In this document: positions 10,123-62,115 of the stretch, piece by piece
Layout: the number at the start of each line of letters is the position of its first letter
Position numbering within the stretch: position 1 is the stretch's first letter
From: Kiritimatiellia bacterium
Lineage (GTDB): Bacteria > Verrucomicrobiota > Kiritimatiellia > RFP12 > UBA1067
Length of the DNA: 64,000 nucleotides
Assembly: GCA_017406465.1 (NCBI GenBank)
Contig: JAFQYM010000015.1
Span: 64,622-128,621 of the forward strand
Reading direction: 5' to 3'
Notes under the pieces: model-generated
What the model saw: the letters and a program-made list of their open reading frames with translations, nothing else
Databases searched by the model: none
Told to the model about the DNA's origin: nothing
Position numbers and translations under genes: made by a program

Positions 10123-10170
10123 AAAGTTGAAAGGTTGAAGAGTTTAAGAGTTTAAGTTTGGAATTTAAAA
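10088..10170 (+). repeat. C-free tandem array of ~8-nt units (A/G)AAGTTGAA
   Basis: 83 nt without a single C in a GC-rich genome: aaagttgaaaagttgaaaggttgaaaagttgaaaggttgaagagtttaagagtttaag. Spans the comEB-like stop and the spacer before tpiA. Confidence 0.9.
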
Positions 10171-10946: not shown

Positions 10947-10959
10947 AGATTGTGTTTAG

Positions 10960-11017
10960 CCGTGTAGAACGTGCAGATCGTGCAGAACCTCTACATGTTT
11001 CTACATGTTCTACATGG
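10960..11017 (+). repeat. GTGYAGAAC composite hairpin, copy 1
   Basis: ccgtgtagaacgtgcagatcgtgcagaa - cct - ctacatgtttctacatgttctacatgg. Three 9-mers are followed by their complements. Confidence 0.85.
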
Positions 11018-11025
11018 TTAATAAA

Positions 11026-16216: not shown

Positions 16217-16860
16217 GTAGGGAAGGCGTCAACATCATCGCCGAATTCAAGCGCGCATCGCCGTCGCTTGGAGACATAGACGTCGCGGCCGATCCGGTCG
16301 CAAAGGCGAAGATATACGAATCGGGCGGAGCGGCCGCGATGTCGGTTCTCTGCGACGCCGCGCGGTTCAAGGGGAGCGTCGAGGACTTGCGGCGCGTAGC
16401 CGCGTCGGGTGCGAAGATTCCGCTTCTCGCAAAAGACTTCATCTCGGAGAAGGAGCGTCTTCGCGAGGTGAAGGACGCGGGCGCGAGTGCGGCCCTGCTG
16501 ATCGTGCGCTACCTTGACGACGAGAAGCTTTCAGAGCTTCTTGCCGAGGCGCGCGCCCTCGGGCTTGACGCGCTCGTCGAGACGCACAGCGAGGAGGAAA
16601 TAAATAGGGCAGTCGCAGTCGGTGCTGACATCATCGGCGTCAACTGCCGCGATCTTTCCAACTTCACTGTGGATGTCTCTATATCCGAGCGGCTCTTGAA
16701 AGCGATTCCGGACGGAATCGTCAAGGTCGCGGAGAGCGGCATCAAGACATCTGCCGACATCGCGCGTCTTCGCGCGGCAGGCGCAAACGCGTTCCTTATA
16801 GGAACTGCACTGATGAAGTCTCAGGACCCGGCAAAACTGTTGTCGATTTTAACCATGTAG
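16195..16860 (+). CDS. trpC: indole-3-glycerol phosphate synthase
   Basis: IIAEFKRASPSLG motif. 221 aa (short N-terminus); overlaps the trpGD end. Confidence 0.85.
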   Translation: MYFKDALSREGVNIIAEFKRASPSLGDIDVAADPVAKAKIYESGGAAAMSVLCDAARFKGSVEDLRRVAASGAKIPLLAKDFISEKERLREVKDAGASAALLIVRYLDDEKLSELLAEARALGLDALVETHSEEEINRAVAVGADIIGVNCRDLSNFTVDVSISERLLKAIPDGIVKVAESGIKTSADIARLRAAGANAFLIGTALMKSQDPAKLLSILTM

Positions 16861-16910
16861 AACGTGTAGATCGTGTAGAAATCCTGCATGTTTCTACACG
16901 TTCTACACGG
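16853..16910 (+). repeat. GTGYAGAAC composite hairpin, copy 2 (trpC-trpB spacer)
   Basis: ccatgtagaacgtgtagatcgtgtagaaa - tcctgcatg - tttctacacgttctacacgg. The trpC stop TAG lies inside the first unit. Confidence 0.85.
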
Positions 16911-16974
16911 CCAATCATTTTCGGCAAGAGATTTGTAATTACGACATTATCTGAAAATCAAAACGACCACAACC

Positions 16975-18237: not shown

Positions 18238-18978
18238 ATGAAACAGAGAATTACAGACTGCTTTGCAAAGGCCAAGTCCGAAGGGCGCGGCGCATTTGTC
18301 GCGTACATGACGATTGGCTATCCAACGCTCGAGAAAAGCGAGGCTGCCGTCGAGACGCTGATCTCGGAAGGTGCCGACATAATCGAGCTCGGTGTGCCGT
18401 TCTCCGACCCGTTTGCCGACGGCGCGGTGATACGCGCCGCCGCGTACGAGGCGCTCAGGCAGGGAGTGACGCTCCGCGACGTCATCGCGCTTGCGAAACG
18501 CGTCCGCTCGCGCCATCCAGAGACGGGACTTGTCCTCTTCTCGTACTACAATCTTCTCTTCGCCAACGGTCTCGAGAAGTTCGCGGACGAGGCGGCCGAC
18601 GCCGGAATAGACGCGGTGCTCGCGGTGGACCTGCCGCTTGAGGAGCGCGACGAACTTCTGGCGGTATTGAAGCCGCGCGGGATGTCTTACGTTCCGCTGA
18701 TCGCTCCCAACACGCCGATCGAGCGCGTCAAGGCGAGCGCGGAGGGGCTTGAGAACACATTCCTCTATGTCATCACAGTGAAGGGCATTACGGGCGCAAG
18801 GAAGGAGCTCCCGAAGGAGCTTTCCGCGCGGCTCGAGGCAGTCCGCGCTGCGGTGAAGCTTCCGATTGCCGCGGGCTTTGGAATTTCCTCGAAGGAGCAG
18901 GCCGACGAGATATGCCGTCATGCAGACGGATACATCATCGGCTCTGCTCTCGTCAAGCGGTTTGGAGCGAAAGAGTAG
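18238..18978 (+). CDS. trpA: tryptophan synthase alpha chain
   Basis: GRGAFVAYMTIGYP and ELGVPFSDPFADG motifs. The ATG at 18175 was rejected because it lies inside the hairpin. Confidence 0.9.
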   Translation: MKQRITDCFAKAKSEGRGAFVAYMTIGYPTLEKSEAAVETLISEGADIIELGVPFSDPFADGAVIRAAAYEALRQGVTLRDVIALAKRVRSRHPETGLVLFSYYNLLFANGLEKFADEAADAGIDAVLAVDLPLEERDELLAVLKPRGMSYVPLIAPNTPIERVKASAEGLENTFLYVITVKGITGARKELPKELSARLEAVRAAVKLPIAAGFGISSKEQADEICRHADGYIIGSALVKRFGAKE

Positions 18979-19035
18979 CCGTGTAGAACGTGCAGAACAT
19001 GTAGAGACTCTACACGATCTACATGTTCTACATGG
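18979..19035 (+). repeat. GTGYAGAAC composite hairpin, copy 4 (trpA-trpF spacer)
   Basis: ccgtgtagaacgtgcagaacatgtagag - a - ctctacacgatctacatgttctacatgg. Confidence 0.85.
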
Positions 19036-19058
19036 TTAAATAAGAAACTCTGATCAGT

Positions 19059-28525: not shown

Positions 28526-30241
28526 ATGAAAAACACAGCAAGACTGTTCGGAACGGCGATTGCCGCCATCATTGCATCTGAAGCCATAGCCGAATCGACT
28601 GTCGGCAGGCACTACGTGGACGACTCGCTTGTCGTCGACCTGAGCGCCACGCCGGTGAAGGACCAGCGCCAGTCGACAACGGCTCCCGACCTCGGCTACG
28701 CCGGCTGTCTCACCGAGGGCTACGGTGACTGCGCATGGTTCTACAACCCGGCGCGCGACAAGACGACGTGGAAGCTCTTCGAGGAGGCCGGCGCGCACGT
28801 CCTCAAGCAGTGGGACTCCGTGATGACCTGGCAGCGCGGACGCCATGAGTCAAAAGACGGCAATCCGAATCCGAAATGGTACTTTGACTTCTGGAAGAAG
28901 CACGGCGTGAAGGTTCTCCTCACGCTCGAGCACCACAAGGTATATGAGGACTCGGGCTGCGCGAAGAAGACCGATGACCTCGAAGCGGTCAAGAAGACGA
29001 TTCTCGACTACGTGCGCTGGATAGTCAAGAACGGCTACAAGGACGTTGTCGGCGGTTTCGAACTCGGCAACGAACCATACTGGGGAAGCGATCCCGAGGG
29101 CTACGCCGCGCGCTGGGTGGCGATCGTTCCCGAGATCAAGAAGATATTCCCCGAGGCGAAGATCGGCATTCCGCTCGCCGAATACCGGCCGAATGATCCA
29201 GACATCGCCTCGGTCCGCGCCCGCGCGACTGGGCTCGAATGGGTGCAGGGCGGCGGCGAGTTCTCGTTTTCGAAGCTCAACCAGTGGTCAGGCCGCTTCA
29301 TCGTCGCGATGAAGCCGGTGATGGACGACATCTCGCACGTTATCTACCACTTCTACGGCGCAGACCGCGCCTACGGATGCAGCCAGTCGGGATTCAACCG
29401 CATCCACAACTTCGCCAAGGTGTTTCCCGAAGTCGCCGACAAGCGCGTGTGGATCACCGAATGGCGCGAGCGTGCCGACGAGGACCTGCGCTGCCACCAG
29501 CGATTCTTTTCGACGCTCTGGAAAGGGCACTACATGCTGGGCGTCCTCATGCAGCCGGAGATCGACGGCATCTCGCTCCACAACCTCGCGACGCTCGCCG
29601 GCGGACTCTACGTCACGACAGCCAAGAATGCGACGTGGTGCGTGCAGCGCGACGAGAACAACCGCGAGTACCCTTATGTCGGCAACTCGTCCACCCCTGT
29701 CGCGGAGGTCGGTCCGGCTGGCCCCGTCTTCCGCCTGTACACTGAGGCGCTCATGTCGCATCCGCTCATCATCGAGCATGCCGTGCCGACGGCGGAGGGC
29801 ACTGTCGCCCACGGCAAGGGCAAGAGCGGACAGTGGCACGGCATCTGGGGCGGGACGCTTTTTTACGAAACTGGAATGCGCGCGCAGAAGGCGGCGGAGT
29901 CTGGCACGCCGCCGGACCAGTGGCCCGAGATTTCGTCCATGTGGGAGTCCGTCGTCGCCTTGAGCGCGAAGCGCGATTCGGTTGCGCTTCTCATGGTCAA
30001 TACGCATCCGCACGAGGACGTCATTCCCGTGAAGCTCGTGAACGGCAAGGCGTTCGTTGGCGAGGCGGTGATTACGTCGGCATCCATCGAGAAGGCCCGT
30101 CTGTTCGAGTGCCAGGTTCCGGGCACGCCGCGCCTCTGGACCGAATCGGTCAAGAAGGAGAAGGTCGCGGGGAAACAGTCTTTCACCGTCAAACTCCCCG
30201 CGTACAGCATCCAGACCGTTGTCGTGGGCGTGAAGAAGTAA
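28526..30241 (+). CDS. secreted glycoside hydrolase, clan GH-A-like, family unclear (paralog 1)
   Basis: Signal peptide. GFELGNEPYW (acid/base) and VWITEWRE (nucleophile) motifs. Confidence 0.6.
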   Translation: MKNTARLFGTAIAAIIASEAIAESTVGRHYVDDSLVVDLSATPVKDQRQSTTAPDLGYAGCLTEGYGDCAWFYNPARDKTTWKLFEEAGAHVLKQWDSVMTWQRGRHESKDGNPNPKWYFDFWKKHGVKVLLTLEHHKVYEDSGCAKKTDDLEAVKKTILDYVRWIVKNGYKDVVGGFELGNEPYWGSDPEGYAARWVAIVPEIKKIFPEAKIGIPLAEYRPNDPDIASVRARATGLEWVQGGGEFSFSKLNQWSGRFIVAMKPVMDDISHVIYHFYGADRAYGCSQSGFNRIHNFAKVFPEVADKRVWITEWRERADEDLRCHQRFFSTLWKGHYMLGVLMQPEIDGISLHNLATLAGGLYVTTAKNATWCVQRDENNREYPYVGNSSTPVAEVGPAGPVFRLYTEALMSHPLIIEHAVPTAEGTVAHGKGKSGQWHGIWGGTLFYETGMRAQKAAESGTPPDQWPEISSMWESVVALSAKRDSVALLMVNTHPHEDVIPVKLVNGKAFVGEAVITSASIEKARLFECQVPGTPRLWTESVKKEKVAGKQSFTVKLPAYSIQTVVVGVKK

Positions 30242-30282
30242 AGTTGAAAGGTTGAAAAGTTGAAAGGATGAAAATGGTTAAA
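30230..30282 (+). repeat. C-free GTTGAAAG array
   Basis: gtgaagaagtaaagttgaaaggttgaaaagttgaaaggatgaaaatggttaa: 53 nt with no C, spanning the junction of the two GH paralogs. Confidence 0.85.
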
Positions 30283-32049
30283 CAATCTATGAAAGCAGGC
30301 ATTGGAATTCATCTCGCGGCAGTTCTTTGCTGTGCGGCTTCTGTCGCGGCAAGAGCTGACTTCGCAATTGACGTAGACATGTCCGCGGACACGATCAAGG
30401 ACGTCCGCACGTCGACATGCGGGCCGGAGGTCGGCTACGCCGGGTGCAACTTCCCCATCGACGGACCGAACGAGCCGGCCGACACATACTGGTTCAAGAC
30501 GCGCGCGGCCGACACCTCCCGCGCGATGCGCGAGGCGGGCGCGTGGTTCCAGCGCATGTGGAACGGCGGCGACTGGTTCGCCCACCGTCTCCCGCCGGAG
30601 GAGTACCGCAGGAAGTGGAACATCGACGACGAGACGTGGAAGAAGAAATTCCGCCGGTACGAGCGGACCGACCCCGCCGCCGCGTTTGCGTTCTGGAAGG
30701 CGAACGGCTTCAAGGTGCTCTTCACGCTCGAAGCCTGGGGCGCCGAGAGGTCGAAGAAGGAAATCATCGAGCTTGTCGACTACATCGTCGCCAACCACTA
30801 CGAGGACGTTGTCGCCGGCTTTGAGCTCGGCAACGAAAGCTACTACTCGAAGGACTACGCCTCGCTCGCGCCCGTCTGGTGCGAAATAATCCCCGAGATC
30901 AAGAAGCGCATGCCGAAGGTGAATCTCGGCATCAACCTCGCCGAGCTCTTCGAGCTCAATCCCGACATCACGCAGGTACGAAACCGCATGCTCGCCGCTG
31001 GCGAGATCAAGCGCGACACATACTTCGCCGCAGGTGACTTCAACCGCTATTCGGCGCAGTTCGTGACGGCGATGTCGAATTGCATCAACCAGATCACACA
31101 CGTCATCTACCATGCCTATGGCGCGGAGACGCCCTACAGCTGCTCCTACTACGGGTTCCAGCGCTTCCGCAATTTTCTTCAGGCGTTCCCCGAACTCAAG
31201 GGGAAGAAGATGTGGCTCAGCGAGGTTCGTCCGCGCTCCGACGAGGACAACTACTGCCAGCGCATCTTCCGCGAGGCGCTTATAATGGCGCACTACTCGA
31301 TGATGGCGATCTGCCAGCCGGACATGGACGGCTTCAACCATCATCAGATCTATGCTATTTCCGGCGGCATCTACCAGTCCGACGGAAAGAACTGGCGCAT
31401 CCAGTGGCGCGACGCAGGGCGCGAATACGTCGACTGGCGCGCGCCGATGGGCGAGCCGCGGCTTGAGGTCGGCGCGTGCGGCGTCATGTACCGCATCCTC
31501 GCGGAGGCGATCAAGGAGCATCCGCTCGTCCTGCGTCACGGCACTTCGAAGGAGGCCGACACCGAAGATGCGTTCTTCACCTCGGCGCGCGTGACGGACC
31601 AGATCTACGCCCGCCGCCGCGCGCTCAAGGAGGGCAAGTCCGGGTGGAGCGTCCCGAAGGTCGAAGGCGAGGTCGAGTGGGTCGCGCTTGCCGACGTGCA
31701 CCGCAACGAGCTGTGCCTGCTGATGGTGAACACCAAGTCCGAGCCGGTCAAGGTGAAGCTGACGGCGCGCGGCAAGGTCAAGAACGAAGTCAAGGCCAAG
31801 GAGTTCGCCGCGCCGACCTACCGCACGCTGAGCTGCCCGGAGAAGTTCCTCGACTGCCGCGCCGTGCCGGGCGAGGGACACCCCTGGACGCAGATGAGCT
31901 GGGAGGACACGCAGGCGGGCTACGCCGCGATTCCGATGGCGGCCTACGAGGGCATGAAGCCCGCCGCATCCGTGCTTACGGTCGAAATCGCCCCGCATAC
32001 GGTGCAGTCCGTGACCGTCCTCCTGCGCAACGCGCCCGACGGCAAGTAA
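30268..32049 (+). CDS. secreted glycoside hydrolase, clan GH-A-like, family unclear (paralog 2)
   Basis: GFELGNESYY and MWLSEVRP sit at positions equivalent to paralog 1. Signal peptide present. Confidence 0.6.
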   Translation: MKMVKQSMKAGIGIHLAAVLCCAASVAARADFAIDVDMSADTIKDVRTSTCGPEVGYAGCNFPIDGPNEPADTYWFKTRAADTSRAMREAGAWFQRMWNGGDWFAHRLPPEEYRRKWNIDDETWKKKFRRYERTDPAAAFAFWKANGFKVLFTLEAWGAERSKKEIIELVDYIVANHYEDVVAGFELGNESYYSKDYASLAPVWCEIIPEIKKRMPKVNLGINLAELFELNPDITQVRNRMLAAGEIKRDTYFAAGDFNRYSAQFVTAMSNCINQITHVIYHAYGAETPYSCSYYGFQRFRNFLQAFPELKGKKMWLSEVRPRSDEDNYCQRIFREALIMAHYSMMAICQPDMDGFNHHQIYAISGGIYQSDGKNWRIQWRDAGREYVDWRAPMGEPRLEVGACGVMYRILAEAIKEHPLVLRHGTSKEADTEDAFFTSARVTDQIYARRRALKEGKSGWSVPKVEGEVEWVALADVHRNELCLLMVNTKSEPVKVKLTARGKVKNEVKAKEFAAPTYRTLSCPEKFLDCRAVPGEGHPWTQMSWEDTQAGYAAIPMAAYEGMKPAASVLTVEIAPHTVQSVTVLLRNAPDGK

Positions 32050-32102
32050 GTAATGCGATTGGCGTGGATGCTGCCGCGGTACAAGACGGGCGGCGAGACA
32101 GG

Positions 32103-32143
32103 AAATGTCGGCTATTTGGCAGTCTTGGAAATAGCCGACATTT
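32103..32143. terminator. AATGTCGGCTAT hairpin H1 (T-tailed, palindromic, bidirectional terminator-like)
   Basis: aaatgtcggctatt-tggcagtcttgga-aatagccgacattt followed by t. Confidence 0.65.
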
Positions 32144-32210
32144 TGCCATTGCGCGTCAGCACCCATTTTTCAGCTTCTACCGATCAAGCCCTCGTTCGAG
32201 CGCCGAATTT

Positions 32211-32477
32211 AACTCCGATCAGCAGGGCTCTCGCTACCGCTCCGCAGAATTACGTTTGCTTCGCATCCTTCATTCGCGTCTCGCTGAGCGACGTATGTAG
32301 GCTTTGAGCTGGAGGAGGTCTCCTCCAGGCCTCCTCTGGCGTGCATGGATTGGCTGTCATGTCTTCTAACCCTGCCGAAGGCAGCTCAAGAAGACAATTC
32401 GACGCACTGAATTGCCGTTGAGACATCGCGAAGCTGCGGAGCGGTAGCGGGAGCCCTAACGCTCGGAGTTTCTTTTT
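32211..32477 (+). ncRNA. candidate structured RNA or MITE-like element bounded by a 37-nt imperfect inverted repeat
   Basis: IR-L 32211-32247 and IR-R 32434-32470 pair over 8+6+1(G-U)+16 bp. Internal perfect hairpins are ctggagga-ggtc-tcctccag (32309-32328) and tgtcttct...ctgcc-gaa-ggcag...agaagaca (32360-32396). A T-run tttcttttt follows. No credible ORF. Confidence 0.5.
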
Positions 32478-32588
32478 GCAGGAGAAAAATGCCCATTCCA
32501 CTTGCGAAAGCGCACATCACCCCTTATTCATCGAGGTGAGATGCACTTTGGCGGTCAAAAAATGGGTAAACTCCAGTAGGGCAGGGGA

Positions 32589-32618
32589 TTGACAATAGTC
32601 CGCCTGTGGGCGTATAAT
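32589..32618 (+). promoter_or_regulatory. near-consensus sigma70-type promoter
   Basis: TTGACA (32589-32594), an 18-nt spacer, then TATAAT (32613-32618). The ATG is 8 nt downstream and there is no SD. Confidence 0.7.
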
Positions 32619-32626
32619 ATGCGCCG

Positions 32627-33304
32627 ATGAAGCGGATTCTCTATCATGGGTCGAAGGACAGGATTGTAAAGCCGTTGTTCGGGGCGGGGCGCCTCAACAA
32701 CGACTATGGGCGTGGTTTCTACTGCACTGAGAGCGAGGATCTTGCAAAAGAGTGGGCCGTTGCCAACGATCACGACGGATGGGCGAATGTCTATTCACTT
32801 AATGACGACGGTTTGAAAGTTCTCAACTTGAATTCGAATAAATACTGTCTTCTTCACTGGCTCGCAGTTCTGCTGGAGAACCGCCAGTTTGAAACAGAGT
32901 ATGGACTGCCTTTGGAGGCCAAGGCGTACCTGACAACGCGATTTGCCGTCCCGTACAAAGAAGCGGACGCCATCATCGGCTATAGAGCGGACGACAGCTA
33001 CTTTACCTTTGCCCAGGACTTCATATCGGGAGCGATTTCCTATTCGCAGCTCGCGTCCGCAATGCGTCTTGGTCATCTCGGAGACCAATATGTCCTCAAA
33101 AGCCGGAAGGCTTTCGGCAGAATTAGGCATATCGAATCGCGGCCTGCGCTGCGCTCCGAATGGCTTGAGCGCAAGAGCGCCCGTGACCATGCCGCGCGTC
33201 AGGAGTACCTGAGCGCATTGAGGCATCAGAGAGTGCCAGGAGATTTGCGCATCGACCGCATAATCGACGAGGAGATAGGACCTGATGACGAACGCCTACG
33301 ATAG
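32627..33304 (+). CDS. DUF3990-like protein with PARP/ADP-ribosyltransferase-like motifs (putative toxin)
   Basis: MKRILYHGSKDRIVKPLFGAGRLNNDYGRGFYCTE ... DAIIGYRADDSYF. The HGS ... GxGFY arrangement parallels the PARP H-Y-E fold motifs. Family name is from memory. Confidence 0.6.
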   Translation: MKRILYHGSKDRIVKPLFGAGRLNNDYGRGFYCTESEDLAKEWAVANDHDGWANVYSLNDDGLKVLNLNSNKYCLLHWLAVLLENRQFETEYGLPLEAKAYLTTRFAVPYKEADAIIGYRADDSYFTFAQDFISGAISYSQLASAMRLGHLGDQYVLKSRKAFGRIRHIESRPALRSEWLERKSARDHAARQEYLSALRHQRVPGDLRIDRIIDEEIGPDDERLR

Positions 33305-33932
33305 AGCGTATCTTCTGCATGCCCGGCAGTCGCTCGGACGTATGCTGGATTTCTCCTGCCATGTCTTAGGATATTCTGCAAGAGGTTTTTGGGATTTGTT
33401 TCTTGCCTCGGGCGTTGCCGCGTCATTCGGGAAAGGGGACGCGCATTTCATTGCCGGCATGAGCGGGTATGAACTCGCCTACGAGGTCCTTGAACGCTGT
33501 GGGGTGAAGTTTAGTCGCGTCGTCGATCCTTCGCCTCCAGACGGAAAGTCCCCGGAGTTCTGGGCGGCATGGTCCGTCGCCCATTATCAATGGTTCAGGG
33601 GGCTGTCCTTCGCACGCATAGACGCGTTCGCCCCGATAGACGACATCGTGGCGATGTATCATCCATATCACGAGATGGACATCTCGCGGTTCTGCGACGA
33701 GATGGACAGGCTTTACCGGCTGAAGTATCCCGAACGGAATCTGCAGCGCATCCGGCGTAGCATCAACTTGAGCCAACGCGACCTTTCCGAACGCTCCGGC
33801 GTGTCGATAAGGACGATACAGGAGCTTGAGCAGGGTCGAAAGGACATCAACCGTGCGGGTATAGACACGCTTATGCCGCTTGCCGCCGCGCTTTCCGTTG
33901 ACGTTGAGTCCCTTGTTGAGCGAGTTGTATGA
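33285..33932 (+). CDS. DUF3791-like domain fused to a C-terminal XRE-type HTH (putative antitoxin/regulator)
   Basis: Overlaps the upstream gene by 20 nt. C-terminus NLQRIRRSINLSQRDLSERSGVSIRTIQELEQGRKDIN is an XRE HTH. The N-terminal domain is homologous to ORF 40242-40655. Confidence 0.6.
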   Translation: MTNAYDRAYLLHARQSLGRMLDFSCHVLGYSARGFWDLFLASGVAASFGKGDAHFIAGMSGYELAYEVLERCGVKFSRVVDPSPPDGKSPEFWAAWSVAHYQWFRGLSFARIDAFAPIDDIVAMYHPYHEMDISRFCDEMDRLYRLKYPERNLQRIRRSINLSQRDLSERSGVSIRTIQELEQGRKDINRAGIDTLMPLAAALSVDVESLVERVV

Positions 33933-33975
33933 CCCTTGTCTGGAAGTGGTGAAAGGCATCCGCCTGTTTCAGTAG

Positions 33976-33996
33976 CCCCCCCCTAATTTGATGGGG
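33976..33996 (+). promoter_or_regulatory. CCCC-TAATTTRRY-GGGG hairpin motif, copy c
   Basis: cccccccctaatttgatgggg. The T of TAATTT is 36 nt before tagaat (34020-34025). Confidence 0.7.
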
Positions 33997-34053: not shown

Positions 34054-35283
34054 ATGATGACTTCGAAAAACAACAGGTCTTTAGTGTGTCTTCGCGCTGT
34101 AGCGCTTCTTTTCGGCACGTTTTTCCTTGCGGTATTACCCGTGCGCGCCGAAAACAACTGGACCTACTACGCCGCCGGCGCTGACGGCAATCCGACGGAC
34201 GCCGCCTGCGTTGTCCACGGCGAGTGGATCATCAAGACCAATGCCTCTGGCACGAACCCCGCAAATGGAGTACTTTGGCTTGACCTGATCGTTTCCGCAC
34301 CGGCGGACGGGATTCTCGACTTGCGCGACGTCGTTCTCGTCGGGACTAACGGCAAAACCGTACTCGACAATGTCCCTGTGACGAGTATGAGACTTCCCAG
34401 CAACAATAGCAAGGGCTGGGATTCCGCCAATATTGTTGAAGTCTATGCGAACAACCTTGCCGACTACGGTGAACCGTTCGGACGCAGCGGCGCGGCCAAC
34501 ACCCGTCTCATGCATCTTGCCAGCAAAACGATGACGGCAGTCACCGGCCGCTTCTGCAATCTCACGAACCTCGTCCTGAACATGCCGAATGCGACGGCCT
34601 GGAGTCCTGGCGGTTTCCACAACTGCTCGCTCACGAATGACATCGCCGAAATCGTCCATCCCTGGCTGCGGACGATTGGGAACAACATGAGCTCACTTGG
34701 CGCGGGCGTGACCGGGACGCTTGTCCTCACGAATGTGTATGACTGCGGAAACCAGGGTTTGTTTCCGGCCGGGGTTTCCGCGGGGCGCTTCGTGTTCAAC
34801 GGTACCGACTTCCAGTCGCAGCCCTTCCGCGGCGCGACGGGGCTGAGGGACTTCGAGCTTGTCGCGCCCGTCTGCACCAACTTCTACCTCGGCTACAACA
34901 GCAGCAACGTAACCAACATAGTTCTCGACGCGCCGCTCGTCATATCTACGCACAACAAGACGCAGCTGCCGCTGGTTCCGGCGGCGAAGTCGTCCGTCTG
35001 GTTCAAGAACGCCGCGCTCGGCATTGACGTGGTGCGGGCGATGGTTTCGGGCGTGACGGCCGTCGCCGCGAGCAAGAACCAGGACAAGAACTGCACGATC
35101 TACTGCTCGAAGAGGATGGGGTGGAAGGAGCTCGCCTCGCCGCTTGAGGGCGACTATGAGAGTGAGCTTGCGCCGGAAGGTTGCTTTGGCGTTCTCGTCG
35201 ATGCTAGCGGCAACCGCCGCGCATGGATGGTCCACCGTGCATCCCCGTATGACAAGAGCGGGCTGATGATTTTCGTGCGGTGA
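34054..35283 (+). CDS. secreted hypothetical protein, possibly BspA-type leucine-rich repeats
   Basis: Signal peptide LRAVALLFGTFFLAVLPVRA. Repeated N-rich segments (NLTNLVLNMPNATAW, NCSLTNDIAEI). C-terminus ends SGLMIFVR. Confidence 0.45.
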   Translation: MMTSKNNRSLVCLRAVALLFGTFFLAVLPVRAENNWTYYAAGADGNPTDAACVVHGEWIIKTNASGTNPANGVLWLDLIVSAPADGILDLRDVVLVGTNGKTVLDNVPVTSMRLPSNNSKGWDSANIVEVYANNLADYGEPFGRSGAANTRLMHLASKTMTAVTGRFCNLTNLVLNMPNATAWSPGGFHNCSLTNDIAEIVHPWLRTIGNNMSSLGAGVTGTLVLTNVYDCGNQGLFPAGVSAGRFVFNGTDFQSQPFRGATGLRDFELVAPVCTNFYLGYNSSNVTNIVLDAPLVISTHNKTQLPLVPAAKSSVWFKNAALGIDVVRAMVSGVTAVAASKNQDKNCTIYCSKRMGWKELASPLEGDYESELAPEGCFGVLVDASGNRRAWMVHRASPYDKSGLMIFVR

Positions 35284-35323
35284 TGCGGTAGGCGGACAGC
35301 ATGAGAATGGCGTTGTTGCCTAT

Positions 35324-35362
35324 AATGTCGGCTATCATTGATTTTCCCGCATAGCCGACATT
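35324..35362. repeat. AATGTCGGCTAT hairpin H2
   Basis: aatgtcggctat-cattgattttcccgc-atagccgacatt followed by tt. Confidence 0.65.
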
Positions 35363-35376
35363 TTGTAGCCCATGAT

Positions 35377-35419
35377 AAAATGTCGGCTATTCTGTGATTT
35401 GCGGAATAGCCGACATTTT
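35377..35419. repeat. AATGTCGGCTAT hairpin H3
   Basis: aaaatgtcggctatt-ctgtgatttgcgg-aatagccgacatttt. Its right arm starts a 31-nt block (35405-35435) identical to 32130-32160. Confidence 0.65.
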
Positions 35420-35458
35420 GCCATTGCGCGTCAGCGCGAAATATGATATAGTGCACGT

Positions 35459-36904
35459 ATGAAATTCATTGGAAGAAGCGAGTATCTTGATAAACTCTCC
35501 GCCTTGTGGGAAAAGAAGCGGAGCTCCTTCGCCGTCGTGTCCGGACGCCGCCGAATCGGGAAGTCGACTCTGGTCGAGGAGTTCGCACGACGCTCGGCCT
35601 GTGATTTCATAGAGATTGTCGGGTTGCCGCCGGATAAGACCATGACTAACCAGCGTCAGATAGATAACTTCTGCGAGCGGCTTGCAAGGGCGGCCAAGAA
35701 GCCGGAAGCCAAGGCCGACTGCTGGCCAAAGGCGTTCGATGCGCTCCATGAAGCGATTCATCCCCGGCGTAAGACAATTGTGTTTCTCGATGAAATATCA
35801 TGGATGGGGCGCTACGACGGAGCCTTTGCCGGATTCCTCAAGACGGCATGGGATACGCAGCTGTCGCTGCACGACAATCTGATACTTGTCGTCGCCGGGA
35901 GCGTCTCGGCCTGGATCCAGGCAAATGTCCAGCGTTCAAAGGCGTATGTCGGAAGGATCTCCCTTGACATAACGCTGCCCGAACTTTCTCTGTCCGAATG
36001 CCGCGCGTTTTGGGGCAGAAAGGCGGATCGGACGGCGACGCGCGAGATACTTGACGTGCTGTCGGTGACGGGAGGCGTTCCGAAATACCTTGCCGAAGTC
36101 AATCCGTCGCTGTCTGCCGACGAGAACATCCGGCGGCTATGCTTCGATCCGGATGGATATCTGTTCAAAGACTTCAATCGCATATTCGACGACGTGTTCG
36201 ATGAGAGCGTCGCCGCCAAGAAGCGAATCGTCACGGCGCTTGCCGACGGCCCGGCGAGCATTGCGGAGCTTGCGGAGCGGATCGGCGTGCAGTCAAGCGG
36301 ACATATTTCATCGGATGTCTCCGATCTCGTGCAGGCGGGTTTTGTCGCCGGTGCACGGGGGAAGAACCCTGGCACAGGACGCGATGTAAGAGAGGTAAGA
36401 TACAGGTTAAGGGACAATTACACGCGTTTTTACCTTAAATACATCCAGCCGAAATCCGAAGCCGTCAGAGAAGGCATGTTCCGCTACGTGTCGCTGGAGC
36501 GTCTTCCGAACTGGAACTCCATAATGGGTCTCCAGTTCGAGAACCTTGTCCTGAACAATTTCCATACACTCGCCAGACGCATCGGACTCGTAGGCAAGAG
36601 CGTGGAATCCGTTGCGCCATACTTCAGGCGTGGACGCAAGGCCGGCGACGGAGTGCAGATAGACATGCTTGTCCAGCTCCCGAAAAGCGCTTATTTGGTG
36701 GAAGTGAAGCGAATGAACACCATCCCCGTTGCCGTGGAGCAAGAGGTGCAAAGGAAAATCGACCGCCTCCCGTTGAAAAAAGGGATGTCCGTAAGAACGG
36801 TGTTGGTCTACGACGGGGAACTTGCGCCCGAGCTCGAGGAGGACGGTTTTTTCGATCATCTCGTTGGTATGGACGAACTCCTTCGTCAGAGCTGCCCCCC
36901 CTAA
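35459..36904 (+). CDS. AAA/STAND-like ATPase (archaeal-ATPase type) - wHTH - PD-(D/E)xK-like domain
   Basis: FIGRSEYLDKL ... VVSGRRRIGKSTLV (Walker A) and VFLDEISW (Walker B). wHTH IVTALADGPASIAELAERIG. C-terminus GLQFENLVL ... VQIDMLV ... LVEVKRM. TATAGT lies 6 nt before the ATG. Confidence 0.75.
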   Translation: MKFIGRSEYLDKLSALWEKKRSSFAVVSGRRRIGKSTLVEEFARRSACDFIEIVGLPPDKTMTNQRQIDNFCERLARAAKKPEAKADCWPKAFDALHEAIHPRRKTIVFLDEISWMGRYDGAFAGFLKTAWDTQLSLHDNLILVVAGSVSAWIQANVQRSKAYVGRISLDITLPELSLSECRAFWGRKADRTATREILDVLSVTGGVPKYLAEVNPSLSADENIRRLCFDPDGYLFKDFNRIFDDVFDESVAAKKRIVTALADGPASIAELAERIGVQSSGHISSDVSDLVQAGFVAGARGKNPGTGRDVREVRYRLRDNYTRFYLKYIQPKSEAVREGMFRYVSLERLPNWNSIMGLQFENLVLNNFHTLARRIGLVGKSVESVAPYFRRGRKAGDGVQIDMLVQLPKSAYLVEVKRMNTIPVAVEQEVQRKIDRLPLKKGMSVRTVLVYDGELAPELEEDGFFDHLVGMDELLRQSCPP

Positions 36905-36949: not shown

Positions 36950-37954
36950 ATGAAAATGAAATTCGCTATGTCTGCCGCGGCGCTCGCTGCCGCGTTTGTT
37001 GCGCCCTCTGCGGGAGGTGCCGCCAAGGCAAAGGACGTTCCGCTTCTGCTCGCTACCGATGCAGGGAAGGTTGTGTCCAATGCGCAGAAGGGGGCGGACG
37101 AGATCGTCCTCTGCGACCAGCTTAAACAGACAATTGACATCTACAGCGCAGAAGGTTTGAACGTCTGGCGCTGGTGCGCGAAGGACGATCCTGGCATTGC
37201 CGGCGGGGACAAGGGCGGTTTCATGAACAATGTCGCGGAATCGAAGCCGTTCGCGGGCGGGTCGAAGATCGGCATGGTGTCGTGCGGCGGACGCTGGGCG
37301 GTGATCGACCGGGCTGCACACAAGGTCACCGCGTGGGGCAGGTGCAACGGCTGGGCGCACTCCATCGAGATGGTCGGGCCGGACGTCGTGGCCGTCGTCT
37401 CGACCGGCGGTACAGGCGGCAATTCGCTGTTTCTTTTCGACATCCGTGGCGACATGGCGATGAATCCGTACAGGCAGAAGAAGTCCACTCTCCAGTTCGA
37501 CTCTCCGCACGGACTCCACTACGACGGCAAAAACCTCTGGCTCGTCGACACTCTCGGACTCCACCGCTGCTCGATCTCGCGCGATGCGGAAGGCGTCCCT
37601 GTCGCGAAAGTCGAGAAGACGTGGCCGTTCTCGGAACTCGGTGTCACACACGGACATGACCTTCGCCCAGTGCCGTGCACAAACCTGCTCGCCATGACGA
37701 CGCACGAGAAGGTGCTGTTCTTCGACATGAAGACGGAGAGCTGGCGGGAGGATATGTTCATTGAAAGGCAGGACGTCAAGGCGTTCGACCCGGCGCCTGA
37801 CGGGAAGTCGTTCCTTGTGACGACGGCGAAGACGAAGTGGTGGACCGATTCGCTTGAAATCTGCACTTTCGGGGGCAAGGGCGTAAAGACGACGTTCGCG
37901 CCGTCTCTCGTCATCCTCGGAGCGAAGATATATAAAGCCCGTTGGGTGAAGTGA
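36950..37954 (+). CDS. secreted hypothetical protein (beta-propeller-like)
   Basis: Signal peptide MKMKFAMSAAALAAAFVAPSAGGAAKA. Ends KIYKARWVK. No catalytic motif recognised. Confidence 0.45.
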   Translation: MKMKFAMSAAALAAAFVAPSAGGAAKAKDVPLLLATDAGKVVSNAQKGADEIVLCDQLKQTIDIYSAEGLNVWRWCAKDDPGIAGGDKGGFMNNVAESKPFAGGSKIGMVSCGGRWAVIDRAAHKVTAWGRCNGWAHSIEMVGPDVVAVVSTGGTGGNSLFLFDIRGDMAMNPYRQKKSTLQFDSPHGLHYDGKNLWLVDTLGLHRCSISRDAEGVPVAKVEKTWPFSELGVTHGHDLRPVPCTNLLAMTTHEKVLFFDMKTESWREDMFIERQDVKAFDPAPDGKSFLVTTAKTKWWTDSLEICTFGGKGVKTTFAPSLVILGAKIYKARWVK

Positions 37955-38115: not shown

Positions 38116-39435
38116 ATGAGGTTTTTCGACAGGGCATCCGAACTCGCCGATTTAAGGGAGATTCGCAAGCGCAGCGAAGACGTTGCGCAGTTCACCGTTG
38201 TGACTGGTCGCAGGCGGGTAGGCAAGACGTCGCTGGTGATGAAGTCGATGGAGGGCGAGACGTACGTCTATCTCTTCGTTGAGAGAAAAAGCGAGAAGGA
38301 CCTTTGCGAGACGTTCGCGAGGGAGATCAACGAGAAACTTGGCGACGTGATGCTGGGCGTGCCGGAGAGATTCGAGGACATATTCGGCGCGCTTATGAAG
38401 CTTGCCGCCACTCGCCATCTGAATGTCGTGATCGACGAGTTCCAGGAATTCCGCAAGATAAGTGTCGGCATTTTCTCGTCGATCCAGAAGCTATGGGACC
38501 TTCACAAGGGGAAGGCGCGCATGAACCTGATCGTGACGGGCAGCGTGAATACGCTTATGGTCAGACTTTTCCGAAACCGTCGCGCGGCGCTGTATGGAAG
38601 GGAGACGGCCTTCATGGTTGTAGAGCCGTTTGCCACCGATGTATTGAAAGAGATAATGGAGGCCTACCATCCTGGCTACAGGCCGGAGGACTTGCTGGCT
38701 CTGTGGACGTTTACCGGCGGCGTCGCCAAGTACGTTGAGCTGCTGGTCGACTCCAAAAGCTGGACGCGCGAGTCCATGATAAAAGAGATCGTCCGGGCGA
38801 ACTCGCTTTTTCTCGACGAGGGGCGTGCGGTTCTTGTCGAGGAGTTTGACAAGGAATACGGCGTCTACTTCTCGATTCTATGTGCCATCGCACGCGGCAA
38901 GACGTCGAGAAACGAGATAGAGCAGACGGTCGGCCGCCAGGTAGGTGGATATCTCGCGCGCCTCGAGAACGACTATGCCCTTATCCGCAGGCATCAGCCG
39001 ATTTTCGCCCGGGCCGCCGCGAAGACGACAAGGTACGAGCTCAACGACCGGTTTCTCGTTTTCTGGTTTCGTTTCATGTACCGCTACAGCTACATACTCG
39101 AACTCAAGGGCTATGAGCAGCTGCGCGAAATAATAAGGAGGGACTATCCCGTCTTCAGTGGCCATGCGCTGGAAGAGTACTTCAGGCGCAAGTTCGCAGA
39201 GTCGGGGCAATGGACGCGCATCGGCTCGTGGTGGGATCGAAAGGGCGAGAACGAGCTGGACATGGTTGCCGAGAACGAGCTGACTGGAGAATACGCAATT
39301 TGCGAAGTAAAGAGACAGGGTGGGAAAATTGACCTCGGTTGCGTTGCAGACAAGTTTGCGGTTTTCCAACGGGCGACAGGCAAATGGCATAGGGTCAAAC
39401 CCAAGTTCCTTGCGTTGTCCCTTGCCGATATGTAA
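38116..39435 (+). CDS. AAA ATPase (archaeal-ATPase type) with C-terminal DUF234 / PD-(D/E)xK-like domain
   Basis: FFDRASELADL ... VVTGRRRVGKTSLV and VVIDEFQE. NDRFLVFWFRFMYRY is typical of DUF234 proteins. C-terminus ALEEYF ... ELDMVA ... ICEVKRQ. Confidence 0.8.
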   Translation: MRFFDRASELADLREIRKRSEDVAQFTVVTGRRRVGKTSLVMKSMEGETYVYLFVERKSEKDLCETFAREINEKLGDVMLGVPERFEDIFGALMKLAATRHLNVVIDEFQEFRKISVGIFSSIQKLWDLHKGKARMNLIVTGSVNTLMVRLFRNRRAALYGRETAFMVVEPFATDVLKEIMEAYHPGYRPEDLLALWTFTGGVAKYVELLVDSKSWTRESMIKEIVRANSLFLDEGRAVLVEEFDKEYGVYFSILCAIARGKTSRNEIEQTVGRQVGGYLARLENDYALIRRHQPIFARAAAKTTRYELNDRFLVFWFRFMYRYSYILELKGYEQLREIIRRDYPVFSGHALEEYFRRKFAESGQWTRIGSWWDRKGENELDMVAENELTGEYAICEVKRQGGKIDLGCVADKFAVFQRATGKWHRVKPKFLALSLADM

Positions 39436-39466: not shown

Positions 39467-39612
39467 TGGCATAGGGCTACTAAACGGCAAAATGTCGATT
39501 AGCGGCCCAAAACGCCGGCGGGATGTGGTATACTATCCACATGGAAAGGTTGTTCAACATCGCTGGGCCGTGCAGTCCGGCCAATCGATAGATATACGGA
39601 ATCTTAGGCGTT

Positions 39613-40251
39613 ATGCGGCTTTACCATGGGTCTAAATCGGGTTTGTCGGGAGCGATCGCCCCCGTGAGCCGCGATGTTTGCGATTTCGGGCGGGGCTTCT
39701 ACATGGGCACGGAAACCACACAGCCGATGACGCTCATTTGCCATGGTAAATCTCCGAAGTTCTATGATGTCGACTTCAACCTTGATGGATTGCGCGTCTA
39801 CCGATTTGGGCCAGATGTTGACTGGGCGATGTTTGTTGCATGGAACAGGCGGGTGATCCCAGATCGCTTCAGACCTTATTACGACGACAAGTTCCTGCCG
39901 ATAGTGCAGTCAAGTGACGTGATTGCCGGCAAGATTGCTAATGACCGCATGGTTGTGGTGTTGGATTGGTTTTTCAATGGCTTTGTATCTGATGTCGGCC
40001 TAATTATGTCGCTTCAGGCGCTTGGACTTGGCGACCAGTATTGCGCACGGACGGCAAAGGCGTGCGAACATGTGAAGATTGCAAGCGAGCGCGCACTCTC
40101 GCCCGATGAATGTGCGGCGTTGCGCATGCGCTCGGAAAGCCAGCGAACCGCAGCGGTGAAGATGGTTGACCGCATACGGCTTGAACATCGCCGTGACGGC
40201 ATGTTCTTCTCGGAGATAATCGAGAAGGCCACGGGGAGGACATGGCTGTGA
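39613..40251 (+). CDS. DUF3990-like protein with PARP/ADP-ribosyltransferase-like motifs (second copy)
   Basis: MRLYHGSKSGLSGAIAPVSRDVCDFGRGFYMGTE ... DVIAGKIANDRM. Same motif order as ORF 32627-33304. Confidence 0.6.
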   Translation: MRLYHGSKSGLSGAIAPVSRDVCDFGRGFYMGTETTQPMTLICHGKSPKFYDVDFNLDGLRVYRFGPDVDWAMFVAWNRRVIPDRFRPYYDDKFLPIVQSSDVIAGKIANDRMVVVLDWFFNGFVSDVGLIMSLQALGLGDQYCARTAKACEHVKIASERALSPDECAALRMRSESQRTAAVKMVDRIRLEHRRDGMFFSEIIEKATGRTWL

Positions 40252-40655
40252 CGCTCGATGTCTTTCAGATGCAGCAATGCGAAAACCAAGGACGTCTATT
40301 CGAGAGCCTTGACAGGCGGGATATCGATGCCAAGGCGTTCATCAAGGCGTTCATGAATTCGCGGGCGGCGGCCGGGCTTGATTCGACGTTCGACCATTTC
40401 CAGTGGGCTGGCAACGAATACATCTACGAAGATGTCGTGGAGGAATTCGGTCTAAAGCCGATGCCGAACCCGCCGCGCTACAATACTGAAGCGCTTTACT
40501 ACGCCGGCTATATTACGCGTTATTGGCACTACCTTACAGGAGAGACCTCGAAGCAAATCTATGCCCAATGCGACGAAACTCGGCTTTTGCAGTGCTACGG
40601 CTTCCATTCCGAGTCAAATGAGATGGCCATCGCGGACATCAGGGCCGGTAGATAG
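40242..40655 (+). CDS. DUF3791-like protein (second copy, no HTH)
   Basis: Overlaps the upstream gene by 10 nt. The shared pattern W.G..Y ... Y..W ... G.S ... Y..HE aligns with the N-terminal domain of ORF 33285-33932. Confidence 0.55.
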   Translation: MAVTLDVFQMQQCENQGRLFESLDRRDIDAKAFIKAFMNSRAAAGLDSTFDHFQWAGNEYIYEDVVEEFGLKPMPNPPRYNTEALYYAGYITRYWHYLTGETSKQIYAQCDETRLLQCYGFHSESNEMAIADIRAGR

Positions 40656-44147: not shown

Positions 44148-44224
44148 GGTCCTGTAGCTCATCTGGACAGAGCAGCTGCCTTCTAAGCAGCGGGTAGTGG
44201 GTTCGAGTCCCGCCAGGACCGCCA
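44148..44224 (+). tRNA. tRNA-Arg (anticodon UCU), CCA encoded
   Basis: Manual cloverleaf: acceptor ggtcctg/caggacc, D arm gctc...gagc, anticodon stem gctgc/gcagc with loop cTTCTaa, T arm gtggg-ttcgagt-cccgc, discriminator g plus cca. tggtataat promoter ends 12 nt upstream. Confidence 0.9.
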
Positions 44225-45485: not shown

Positions 45486-46597
45486 AGACAATAGAGAGAT
45501 ACGTATTTGGATCTTTCCTCTCGAGCTTCCTGCTCGCGTTTCTCGTCTTGTCGTTCGTCATAACGATCGGGCTGATGGTGCAGATTGTCGGGTTCATCCT
45601 CGACGGCGTCTCGCCCTCGCTCATCGGCCAGTTCGCGCTAGTGAGCTTCCCCGAGACGATGCAGTGGACGATGCCGCTTGCGCTTCTCGTGGCGAGCGTC
45701 CTCGTCTTCTCGCGCATGAGCGCCGACAGCGAGATTGCCGCGATGCGCGCTTGCGGCGTTAACCTGCTGTCGATCATGAAGTGGCCCATCGCGTTTTCGC
45801 TTCTTTGCGTGGCGCTCGGGTTCTATATCAACAACGAAGTAGTGCCGCGCGGGCATGAGGTCCGCAGGAGTCTCAAGACGAAGGTCTCGGTCAGCACCGG
45901 CATAGATCTCCTCGAGCCGGGGCACGTGATCGACGACTTCCCGAAGATGAAGTTCTATTTCGGCGCGAAGGAGGGCAACTGGCTCTACGACATCGTCGTC
46001 ATGGACTATTCGCAGAAGGTTGACCGCATGATAACCGCCTCGAAGGCGCTCGTGACGAGCGAGGGGACGGATCTCCATCTCGACCTCTACCAGATGACCG
46101 TCGATCCGCTCGACGAGGATCACCCGACGATGGCACGTGCAACGCGTTTCCCCTACGTCGTAAAGGACGCGATAAAGGAAGTCAAGTACAACAAGAAGGA
46201 CAAGGACCTCGACTTCGGGGAGATTCTTGCGAAGATGAAGCTCCAGCAGAAGCTCGTCGACGCCGCACAGGGCAGGAGCAAGACCGCTGGCACCGAGAAG
46301 AACCTGCGAAAGCGCGACCTCTCGAAGACGCGGACGGAGTTCTCGAAGCGACTCGTCTTCGCGATGGCCTCGTTTTGCTTCGTCCTCGTAGGCATCCCGC
46401 TCGGCATCAAGGCCCAGCGAAAGGAGAGTTCGATCGGCATGGCGATATCGCTTGCCGTCTCGCTCGGCTATTACATAGTCGTGATACTCATGCTCTCGGC
46501 CCAGAAGAACTTTGCGATGCGCCCGGACATCCTCATTTGGCTTCCAGTTCCCGCGTGCTTCGCGATAGCGTCTTATCTCATGCCGAAGAACCTATAG
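45482..46597 (+). CDS. LptF/LptG family LPS export permease
   Basis: IERYVFGSFLSSFLLAFLVLSFV is a typical YjgP/YjgQ N-terminus. 6 TM segments with a large periplasmic loop. GTG start overlaps the tyrS stop. Confidence 0.8.
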   Translation: MKTIERYVFGSFLSSFLLAFLVLSFVITIGLMVQIVGFILDGVSPSLIGQFALVSFPETMQWTMPLALLVASVLVFSRMSADSEIAAMRACGVNLLSIMKWPIAFSLLCVALGFYINNEVVPRGHEVRRSLKTKVSVSTGIDLLEPGHVIDDFPKMKFYFGAKEGNWLYDIVVMDYSQKVDRMITASKALVTSEGTDLHLDLYQMTVDPLDEDHPTMARATRFPYVVKDAIKEVKYNKKDKDLDFGEILAKMKLQQKLVDAAQGRSKTAGTEKNLRKRDLSKTRTEFSKRLVFAMASFCFVLVGIPLGIKAQRKESSIGMAISLAVSLGYYIVVILMLSAQKNFAMRPDILIWLPVPACFAIASYLMPKNL

Positions 46598-46640
46598 GAA
46601 AGTTAAAAGTTTAACGGTTAAAAATTGAAAGGTTGAAAAG
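46598..46640 (+). repeat. C-depleted GTTGAAAG-type array
   Basis: gaaagttaaaagtttaacggttaaaaattgaaaggttgaaaag, with a single C. Confidence 0.75.
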
Positions 46641-62069: not shown

Positions 62070-62115
62070 AAGTGTAAAGTTGAAAGTGCAAAGTTGAAAG
62101 TTTAAAGTAGAAAAA
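62067..62115 (+). repeat. C-depleted GTTGAAAG-type array
   Basis: taaaagtgtaaagttgaaagtgcaaagttgaaagtttaaagtagaaaaa in the pyrH-frr spacer. Confidence 0.75.

Follow-up and report, generated by a model that had tools for sequence, protein, structure and literature searches.

Two overlapping gene pairs in a Kiritimatiellia bacterium of gut or rumen origin (contig JAFQYM010000015.1) are probably toxin–antitoxin (TA) modules of the ADP-ribosyltransferase (ART) type, the first of which would be autoregulated. The stretch analysed, hereafter the window, comprises 64,000 nt, and each pair consists of a gene for a DUF3990 protein (T1 or T2) followed by the gene for its partner (A1p or A2p), i.e.:

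32627..33304, + strand: T1, DUF3990 protein of 225 aa, predicted ART-fold toxin of the PADLOC PDC-M42A type
33285..33932, + strand: A1p, partner of T1, 215 aa, predicted antitoxin and autorepressor
39613..40251, + strand: T2, DUF3990 protein of 212 aa, PADLOC PDC-M13 type
40242..40655, + strand: A2p, DUF3791-like partner of T2, 135–137 aa, without a helix-turn-helix (HTH) domain

The genes of both pairs are small, adjacent, co-directional and overlapping, as in type II TA modules, and the four open reading frames (ORFs), with overlaps of 20 nt for T1/A1p and 10 nt for T2/A2p, lie exactly where the original prediction had placed them. This prediction read the pairs as an ART-fold toxin with a cognate, autoregulating antitoxin, and all available computational tests agree with it, toxicity and neutralisation being the conjectural part. 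Domain identity, fold class, gene pairing, covariation of the operator with the HTH helix and accessory status were computed here.

Fold and candidate active site of the DUF3990 proteins

T1 matches the Pfam DUF3990 model (PF13151) over model positions 2–150 of 152 (E 1.6e-41, 141.9 bits) and T2 over positions 1–151 (E 2.1e-25, 89.6 bits), both exceeding the gathering threshold of 32.2 bits. Considering that T1 and T2 are only 25 % identical, they belong to different subfamilies and do not stem from a recent duplication. The earlier description of the pairs as two copies is therefore valid insofar as both combine a DUF3990 protein with a partner, but not in the sense of recent duplicates.

DUF3990 is listed among the families of Pfam's ART clan (PMC7955679), a grouping that the original prediction had given correctly. 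An AlphaFold2 model of T1, for which 39 sequences were used, is confident (predicted local distance difference test score, pLDDT, 91.3; predicted template-modelling score, pTM, 0.87) and points in the same direction. When this model was compared with the PDB by Foldseek, the top 36 matches were all ART-superfamily proteins, at weak scores throughout. The list is led by MbcT (6fkg_B, prob 0.98), ParT and VPA0770, all of them TA toxins, and further includes PARP1, PARP4, an insecticidal ART, diphtheria toxin and tankyrases. Among the predicted viral structures of BFVD, the best named matches were phage PolyVal ADP-ribosyltransferases (E 1e-4 to 1e-2), in agreement with weak Pfam matches to ART-PolyVal in 21/39 members of the DUF3990 family, which cover the H and Y motifs. 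No RES family match was found in any of the 39 members (Pfam scan at E<=1), and scans of NCBIfam and PHROGs returned nothing for T1, T2 or A2p. Judged by the modelled fold, membership of T1 and T2 in the ART superfamily is well supported but unproven.

The motifs from which the ART reading had started, i.e. (I/R)LYHGS, GRGFY(C/M) and D(A/V)I(I/A)G..A(D/N)D, are present as quoted: T1 has ILYHGS at residues 4–9, GRGFYC at 28–33 and DAIIGYRADD at 114–123, and T2 has RLYHGS, GRGFYM and DVIAGKIAND in the same order. The PARP1 motifs cited for comparison, LWHGS ... GKGIYFAD, proved correct, as PDB chain 8u4w_A contains LLWHGS, GKGIYFAD and YNEYIVY. An hhalign comparison of a diverse DUF3990 profile with PARP1, at a low probability of 28.5 %, pairs H7 with H862 and Y32 with Y896. 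Over 13 DUF3990 proteins at 24–29 % identity, H7, G8, S9, D26, G28, G30, F31, Y32 and Y56 are invariant, as are W78, R86, D114, G118, A121, D123 and Q154; T2 has the same invariant H, Y and D residues as T1.

The accepted triad of diphtheria-toxin-type ARTs is H-Y-[E,D,Q] (PMC11618068). In the T1 model, D114 directly precedes strand 115–119, the site of the acid in such ARTs, and it is this placement together with its invariance that makes D114 the putative catalytic acid, next to H7 and Y32 as the other candidate catalytic residues of T1. Toxic activity is indirectly supported by the occurrence of DUF3990 as the C-terminal tip of type VI secretion system Rhs effectors in Serratia and Enterobacter (PMC4524185, PMC10763514).

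Partner proteins, pairing and proposed promoter control

In 80 toxin loci surveyed from species-representative genomes, a partner-family gene is found immediately downstream of the toxin gene in 75; the partner carries an HTH in 73 of those 75 loci, and 46 show an overlap of exactly 20 nt. Conversely, of the 69 pair-2-type partner loci with enough upstream sequence, 62 have a DUF3990 gene as their immediate upstream neighbour, as do 4/4 individual look-ups of this partner type, so that the two families co-occur whichever of them is taken as the starting point. Loci of the T1 type are spread across at least five phyla at up to 69 % identity, with hosts among Clostridia, Negativicutes, Treponema and other spirochaetes, Victivallales, Bacteroidales and Coriobacteriia. 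The DUF3990 family as a whole amounts to 4,824 clusters at 50 % identity (E<=1e-3), with some members on plasmids and others on viral contigs in IMG/VR and, at 5 loci, in INPHARED.

Other architectures were also seen. In two independent cases, L131 (990–1850) and P0540, an XRE-type HTH sits at the N-terminus of the DUF3990 protein rather than on the partner, and single ORFs holding DUF3990, partner and HTH (P0583 and P0480) may be genuine fusions or artefacts of assembly or frameshift. The canonical short systems of a Clostridium tetani plasmid (L097, 2774–3715) and of Segatella copri (L099, 2780–3698) consist of three overlapping genes, encoding in this order DUF3791 (~75 aa), DUF3990 (~160 aa) and a small protein X (~75 aa). 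The latter is conserved between both hosts (hhalign prob 97.9 %) and appears to be a third component undescribed so far. The canonical toxins do not have the ~55-residue C-terminal extension carried by T1 and T2, which is helical in T1 (about residues 170–225).

The C-terminal XRE-type HTH proposed for the partner in the first pair is indeed found in A1p, where HTH_3 matches residues 153–208 (E 6.5e-8) of a domain extending from about 151 to 213. The preceding N-terminal domain (about residues 1–148) is DUF3791-like, and the AlphaFold2 model of A1p is all-helical, this domain included (pLDDT 92.9). PDB matches of the model are limited to the C-terminal HTH, i.e. DdrO, C.AhdI, SinR, CapH and HipB, and NCBIfam likewise yields weak, HTH-level matches of this region to the MqsA and Y4mF/HipB antitoxin families. 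No macrodomain match was obtained for the partner, either in a Pfam scan or by comparing the A1p model with the PDB; as the N-terminal domain is all-helical and not a macrodomain, a DarG-like enzymatic antitoxin is excluded.

The designation of the partners as DUF3791-like is only partly sustained. Neither A1p nor A2p matches Pfam DUF3791 (PF12668, gathering threshold 25 bits) directly, even at E<=10, but 20 of 35 members of the A2p family match it at E<=1 (best E 5.8e-7), and hhalign relates the A2p family to the N-terminal 150 residues of the A1p family (prob 96.8 %, E 2.4e-10). Alignments of the partners with true DUF3791 proteins are weak (prob 17–38 %), and A1p and A2p would at best be remote DUF3791 relatives. 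A tandem of two DUF3791 units, considered for the 137-aa partner in view of Pfam matches at two positions, was rejected since the halves are unrelated (hhalign prob <1 %); the comparison of this protein with the two small proteins of the canonical three-gene cassette is ambiguous (prob 38–48 %).

The regulatory elements located upstream of the pairs are the following:

32589..32618, + strand: sigma-70-type promoter of pair 1 (TTGACA, 18 nt, TATAAT), matching the consensus at 12/12 positions
32598..32615, no strand assigned: putative operator of pair 1, imperfect palindrome gTCCGCC-tgtg-GGCGTAt between -35 and -10, covering the first 3 nt of the -10 box
39526..39534, + strand: extended -10-like element TGgTATACT upstream of pair 2

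A promoter of this kind also precedes the toxin gene in related loci, with a 12/12 match in 23 of 78 and an 11/12 match in another 28, i.e. at least 11/12 in 51/78. At a fixed register between the hexamers, these loci share an inverted repeat, typically ATACTCC-N4-GGAGTAT, which reaches into the -10 box. Across 67 loci, Watson–Crick pairs are formed at the four inner positions of the arms in 89.6 % of cases versus 62.6 % in shuffles (maximum 67.9 % in 2,000), and two arm positions show all four pair types. A pair-counting tool applied to 54 operator sequences gave 93.4 % pairing (81.7 % in shuffles), 38 cells with double-sided changes (8.0 in shuffles) and a covariation score of 0.353 (0.141 in shuffles); 0/500 shuffles reached these values, and controls with a slid register collapsed.

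Moreover, the operator follows the recognition helix of the HTH. Arms of ACTCC/GGAGT occur with helix RTIQQYEQ in 32/33 readable loci, ATCGC/G(C/A)GAT with RQIQLFEQ in 8/8, ATCGT/ACGAT with RMIQLYEQ in 2/2, ACACC/GGTGT with RMIQ(N/H)YEQ in 3/3 and ACAAC/GT(A/G)GT with R(I/V)IQSYEQ in 3/3, and the clade of the window, i.e. the window itself, L083, L086 and L087, combines (A/C)CGCC/GGCGT with RTIQE(L/F)EQ. Given six helix-matched operator classes at a fixed promoter site, autorepression by the partner is the natural reading: a dimer of the A1p HTH would repress its own promoter through the predicted operator at 32598–32615. The palindrome in the promoter, with its covariation and its tracking of the helix, is new in this analysis. 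The autoregulating antitoxin layout that had been proposed is thus supported by comparative evidence for pair 1 but not for pair 2, the partner of which has no HTH.

Cross-regulation of pair 2 by A1p was considered and rejected, as the exact operator site of pair 1 occurs once in the window and a second operator is not found there. Upstream of pair 2, the TATACTAT core of the -10-like element recurs in 4/5 pair-2-type loci. The palindrome ATGTGG-N8-CCACAT (39523–39542) was also discarded as a conserved operator of this pair, since relatives conserve just the TATACTAT -10-like motif and not the palindrome.

With the end of the -10 box of pair 1 just 8 nt ahead of the start codon, the mRNA of T1 is predicted to have little or no leader, and the same would hold for the toxin mRNA of L083. 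An AGGAG lies 10 nt before the ATG of A1p, within the T1 coding sequence and in the conserved 'DEE' codons of the toxin. As homologs of A2p begin with MTLDV, the true start of A2p is likely the GTG at 40248, resulting in a 4-nt GTGA start/stop overlap with T2 in place of the 10 nt given above, with GGAGGA 6 nt upstream. Contigs from RNA runs span both genes of pair 1 and also the T2/A2p junction.

Accessory status and surroundings of the pairs

Pair 1 is variably present among strains, and the affected segment is:

32050..33978, no strand assigned: segment missing in other strains according to empty-site contigs, comprising a dispersed repeat, the promoter, T1 and A1p

DNA contigs of two other runs join 32039 to 33979 and 32049 to 33979, respectively, i.e. 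they represent empty sites without the repeat and pair 1, which therefore appears to be an accessory insertion. One RNA-run contig joins 32048 to 32584, with the module present and the 535-nt intergenic repeat missing. The conserved module of pair 1 extends from 32584 to 33936, from the promoter through the partner stop, and homology breaks at both ends: gut and rumen metatranscriptome contigs match the window at 32584–33936 alone and then continue into unrelated sequence. All contigs carrying an identical T1 have one shared context. For pair 2, coverage at the presence/absence check in other strains was sparse.

The gap upstream of T1 contains a structured element (32152–32580; fold z = -7.8 and -9.2), in which a ~35-bp long-range stem encloses several hairpins. 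RNA and DNA runs alike cover it 10–70x more deeply than the sequence on either side, and they show it with many different flanks. Since the DNA runs share this excess, the element is a dispersed repeat of this population, resembling miniature inverted-repeat transposable elements or repetitive extragenic palindromic sequences, and is missing here in some strains. An abundant non-coding RNA or a tmRNA/tRNA integration site was rejected because no Rfam, tRNA or tmRNA match was found for the element and the DNA runs are equally over-deep.

A G/C-stemmed hairpin, CCCC-(C)TAATTT(G/A)-GGGG, occurs on the + strand at 27259, 28472, 33976, 36895, 39451 and 40656, usually 55–80 nt ahead of the start of the next gene. 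Its exact 11-mer is found four times in the window versus 0.3 expected, and the empty-site joint of pair 1 falls on the copy at 33979; a terminator, a promoter element and a recombination site are candidate roles. CCCC-TAATTTGA-GGGG was rejected as part of the module, as it is host-specific, also present at 27259 and 28472, and missing from 75 distant loci. Another hairpin-containing repeat, AAATGTCGGCTAT...ATAGCCGACATTTTGCCATTGCGCGTCAGC (58 nt, copies 84 % identical), is located at 32103–32160, 35321–35365 and 35378–35435, following a glycoside-hydrolase-like gene and a gene for a 409-aa secreted protein; its copies bracket a segment with the dispersed repeat, pair 1 and the 409-aa gene.

Between the two pairs lie genes for two paralogous ATPase_2 + DUF234 proteins (35459–36904 and 38116–39435), which correspond to the PADLOC candidate PDC-S27 (E 4.5e-80 and 2.2e-44). 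They are interleaved with genes for predicted secreted proteins, i.e. one at 34054–35283 and a DUF6528 protein at 36950–37954. This stretch, with a guanine–cytosine content of 0.54–0.58 versus about 0.60, may constitute a small island made up of candidate defence genes.

Elsewhere in the window, short tandem arrays of the 8-mer AAGTTGAAA / GGTTGAAA stand directly upstream of genes at 10077–10141, 30218–30274, 46591–46639 and 62060–62108, with a copy-number variant in one metatranscriptome contig, in which GTTGAAAG is inserted at 30258. A 68-nt repeat with internal dyad symmetry, rich in GTGTAGAAC / GTGCAGA, is present in three copies (10955–11022, 16848–16915 and 18974–19041). The sole Rfam match in the window at the gathering threshold is a tRNA gene at 44148–44221.

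Relation to known systems, rival readings and significance

As the original prediction had assumed, no experimental characterisation of the pair was found in the literature searched. The same protein families are already catalogued in PADLOC as PDC-M42, PDC-M13 and PDC-M10 (Payne et al. 2024 preprint), bioinformatic candidates embedded in BREX, DISARM or type I restriction–modification (RM) loci that are explicitly untested and come with no proposed mechanism. With PADLOC v2, T1 matches PDC-M42A (9.4e-41) and T2 matches PDC-M13B (1.5e-17), and the matches of the partners to PDC-M42B are weak (A1p 6e-4, A2p 1.3e-4). In rumen metagenome-assembled genomes (MAGs), PDC-M13 ranks with the commonest candidate systems, at 3,324 occurrences (PMC13356809).

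By analogy, the window pairs would resemble ParST and MbcTA in their working, arranged in a layout like that of MqsRA and HigBA. ParST and MbcTA likewise have small NAD+-using toxins of the ART superfamily, among them the leading PDB matches of T1, a helical antitoxin that binds directly and an Xre-type HTH on the antitoxin side. In contrast to these RES-Xre systems, in which ParT has a Pfam family of its own and the Xre antitoxin gene precedes the toxin gene, the window toxins have no RES match and possess conserved H, Y and D residues, the gene order is reversed with the toxin gene first, and the presumed toxin-binding domain is DUF3791-like, N-terminal to the HTH and without a structural relative. 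The sequences thus place the window pairs outside the RES-Xre family, with a probable similarity at the level of the fold alone. In MqsRA and HigBA the toxin gene also comes first, and in their antitoxins a toxin-binding part at the N-terminus is combined with an XRE HTH at the C-terminus, which binds palindromes at the antitoxin's own promoter. Their toxins, however, are RNases and not ART-fold proteins, and they share no homology with the window pairs outside the HTH.

The comparison with DarT-DarG made at the outset is not borne out on the antitoxin side, as the partner is all-helical without a macrodomain and the layout is nearer to MqsRA/HigBA. DarTG and CmdTAC do share with the window pairs a toxin-first order and have ART toxins with an H-Y-[E,D,Q] triad, as predicted here for T1 and T2; these toxins, which modify nucleic acids, act in defence through abortive infection (PMC11618068). 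However, DarG acts as a macrodomain enzyme by removing the modification, CmdTAC depends on a SecB-like chaperone, of which none is present at the window pairs, and the PADLOC models of both systems gave no match to these pairs. By sequence, and by structure in the viral library, the closest related family of DUF3990 is ART-PolyVal (PF18760), although the sequence match stays below the Pfam threshold (15.9 vs 31.2 bits), and ART-PolyVal is a domain of very large multi-domain proteins injected by phages or conjugative elements, with no dedicated partner gene. The canonical DUF3791-DUF3990-X cassettes have the same toxin domain and invariant residues and also overlapping small partners, but they comprise three genes, without an HTH or the toxin extension, where the window has a single larger partner downstream.

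In the explanation that we favour, enzymatic activity, toxicity, neutralisation by binding, repression, leaderless translation and biological role are what we infer from these data. The DUF3990 toxin would be a NAD+-using enzyme of the ART superfamily with an H-Y-D active site (H7, Y32 and D114 in T1), and free toxin would arrest growth by ADP-ribosylating an essential macromolecule, destruction of NAD+ being less likely. The second gene would be translated from the same mRNA through the short overlap, and the all-helical DUF3791-like partner would neutralise the toxin by direct binding. In pair 1, an A1p dimer would bind the palindrome overlapping the -10 box of its own sigma-70 promoter and thereby repress it, and a near-leaderless toxin cistron together with the good Shine–Dalgarno sequence of A1p would favour an excess of the partner. 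Pair 2 would represent a different subfamily, with a partner devoid of a DNA-binding domain. The most likely biological role would be the stabilisation of accessory DNA and/or phage defence by abortive infection.

Several points weigh against this explanation. The Foldseek scores of T1 in the PDB are weak (best E 0.018, template-modelling score 0.3–0.48, none at E<=0.001), a search of the DUF3990 alignment profile against PDB sequences found no relevant relative, and the PARP1 alignment, at its probability of 28.5 %, stops short of the third motif; that D114 is the third catalytic residue, we infer from its position before strand 115–119 and its invariance alone. The N-terminal domain of A1p has no structural relative among the solved structures searched in the PDB, neutralisation of the toxin by binding is put forward by analogy, and the ORFs that fuse toxin and partner, if real, fit awkwardly with a labile antitoxin. 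The correlation of operator and helix is partly phylogenetic, with classes common to related loci, and for pair 2 neither an identifiable regulator nor a conserved operator was found in the upstream regions of relatives. In addition, just 14 loci of the family are present among the 2.9 million viral contigs of IMG/VR, no consistent defence context was seen around distant homologs in the neighbourhoods examined, and the literature searched holds no experimental characterisation of any DUF3990 or DUF3791 protein.

It is quite possible, though not what we expect, that the pairs are dedicated anti-phage systems acting by abortive infection, in which the partner would keep the ART inactive up to the point where infection removes or titrates the partner, whereupon the freed ART would modify nucleic acid or protein of the phage or the host, as in DarTG or CmdTAC. 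Such a function overlaps with that of a TA module and differs mainly in role. T1, T2 and their partners match PDC-M42, PDC-M13 and PDC-M10, which derive from BREX, DISARM and type I RM loci, PDC-M13 is frequent in rumen MAGs, the two PDC-S27 candidate ATPase genes lie between the pairs, pair 1 is accessory, and known ART toxins do defend against phage (PMC11618068). Yet the PDC systems are explicitly untested, around distant homologs mainly housekeeping or metabolic genes are found, and apart from the PDC candidates the window region showed no known defence genes. Regarding the chemistry, MbcT, the best PDB match of T1, is a NAD+ phosphorylase toxin (PMC6436930), and degradation of NAD+ by phosphorolysis or hydrolysis could take the place of ADP-ribose transfer to a macromolecule. 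We regard this as unlikely, as DUF3990 has no RES match in Pfam, its invariant H, Y and D are those of transferases of the diphtheria-toxin/PARP type, and its closest relatives by sequence and viral structure are PolyVal ARTs.

Improbable, to a greater degree, is the absence of any toxin, with DUF3990 as a harmless enzyme, e.g. a small-molecule ART of the Arr type, and the partner as its ligand-sensing XRE transcription factor. The rifamycin-resistance enzyme Arr is a small ART with an H-Y-D triad, and A1p is a predicted promoter-binding regulator with a large N-terminal domain. The pair-2-type and canonical DUF3791 partners, however, are coupled to DUF3990 equally tightly without a DNA-binding domain, so that transcription is not what the partner domain is conserved for; moreover, the toxin itself can carry the HTH (L131, P0540), DUF3990 serves as an Rhs toxin tip, and no Arr structure is found in the top 50 PDB matches of T1. 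Finally, the roles could be reversed or degenerate, with DUF3990 as a dead ART-like scaffold or antitoxin and the helical partner as the effector. A DUF3990-first order is less common for type II TA modules, and pseudo-ART domains exist, the TASOR pseudo-PARP being among the weak PDB matches, but invariance of H-G-S, G-x-G-F-Y and D114 over deep divergence is unexpected for a dead enzyme, the HTH-bearing protein is typically the antitoxin, and the DUF3791 gene comes first in the canonical short systems, which leaves such a reversal very improbable.

The reading as ART-type TA modules matters because each of the ART-fold toxins DarT, ParT, MbcT and CmdT brought to light a target or chemistry not seen before, together with a function in persistence or phage defence, and because DUF3990 is a large family, frequent in rumen microbiomes as a candidate system and used as an Rhs effector tip. 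What is gained here is a concrete model with candidate catalytic residues, a defined partner, a defined predicted operator and matched classes of helix and operator, and natural strains with and without pair 1 have been identified. It is tempting, if rather doubtful, to see in DUF3990/DUF3791 a very large family of ART toxin systems, so far uncharacterised and abundant among anaerobes of the gut and rumen, which may offer a new ART-toxin target or chemistry, an antitoxin with a new fold and, in its HTH–operator pairs, at least six orthogonal repressor/operator specificities.

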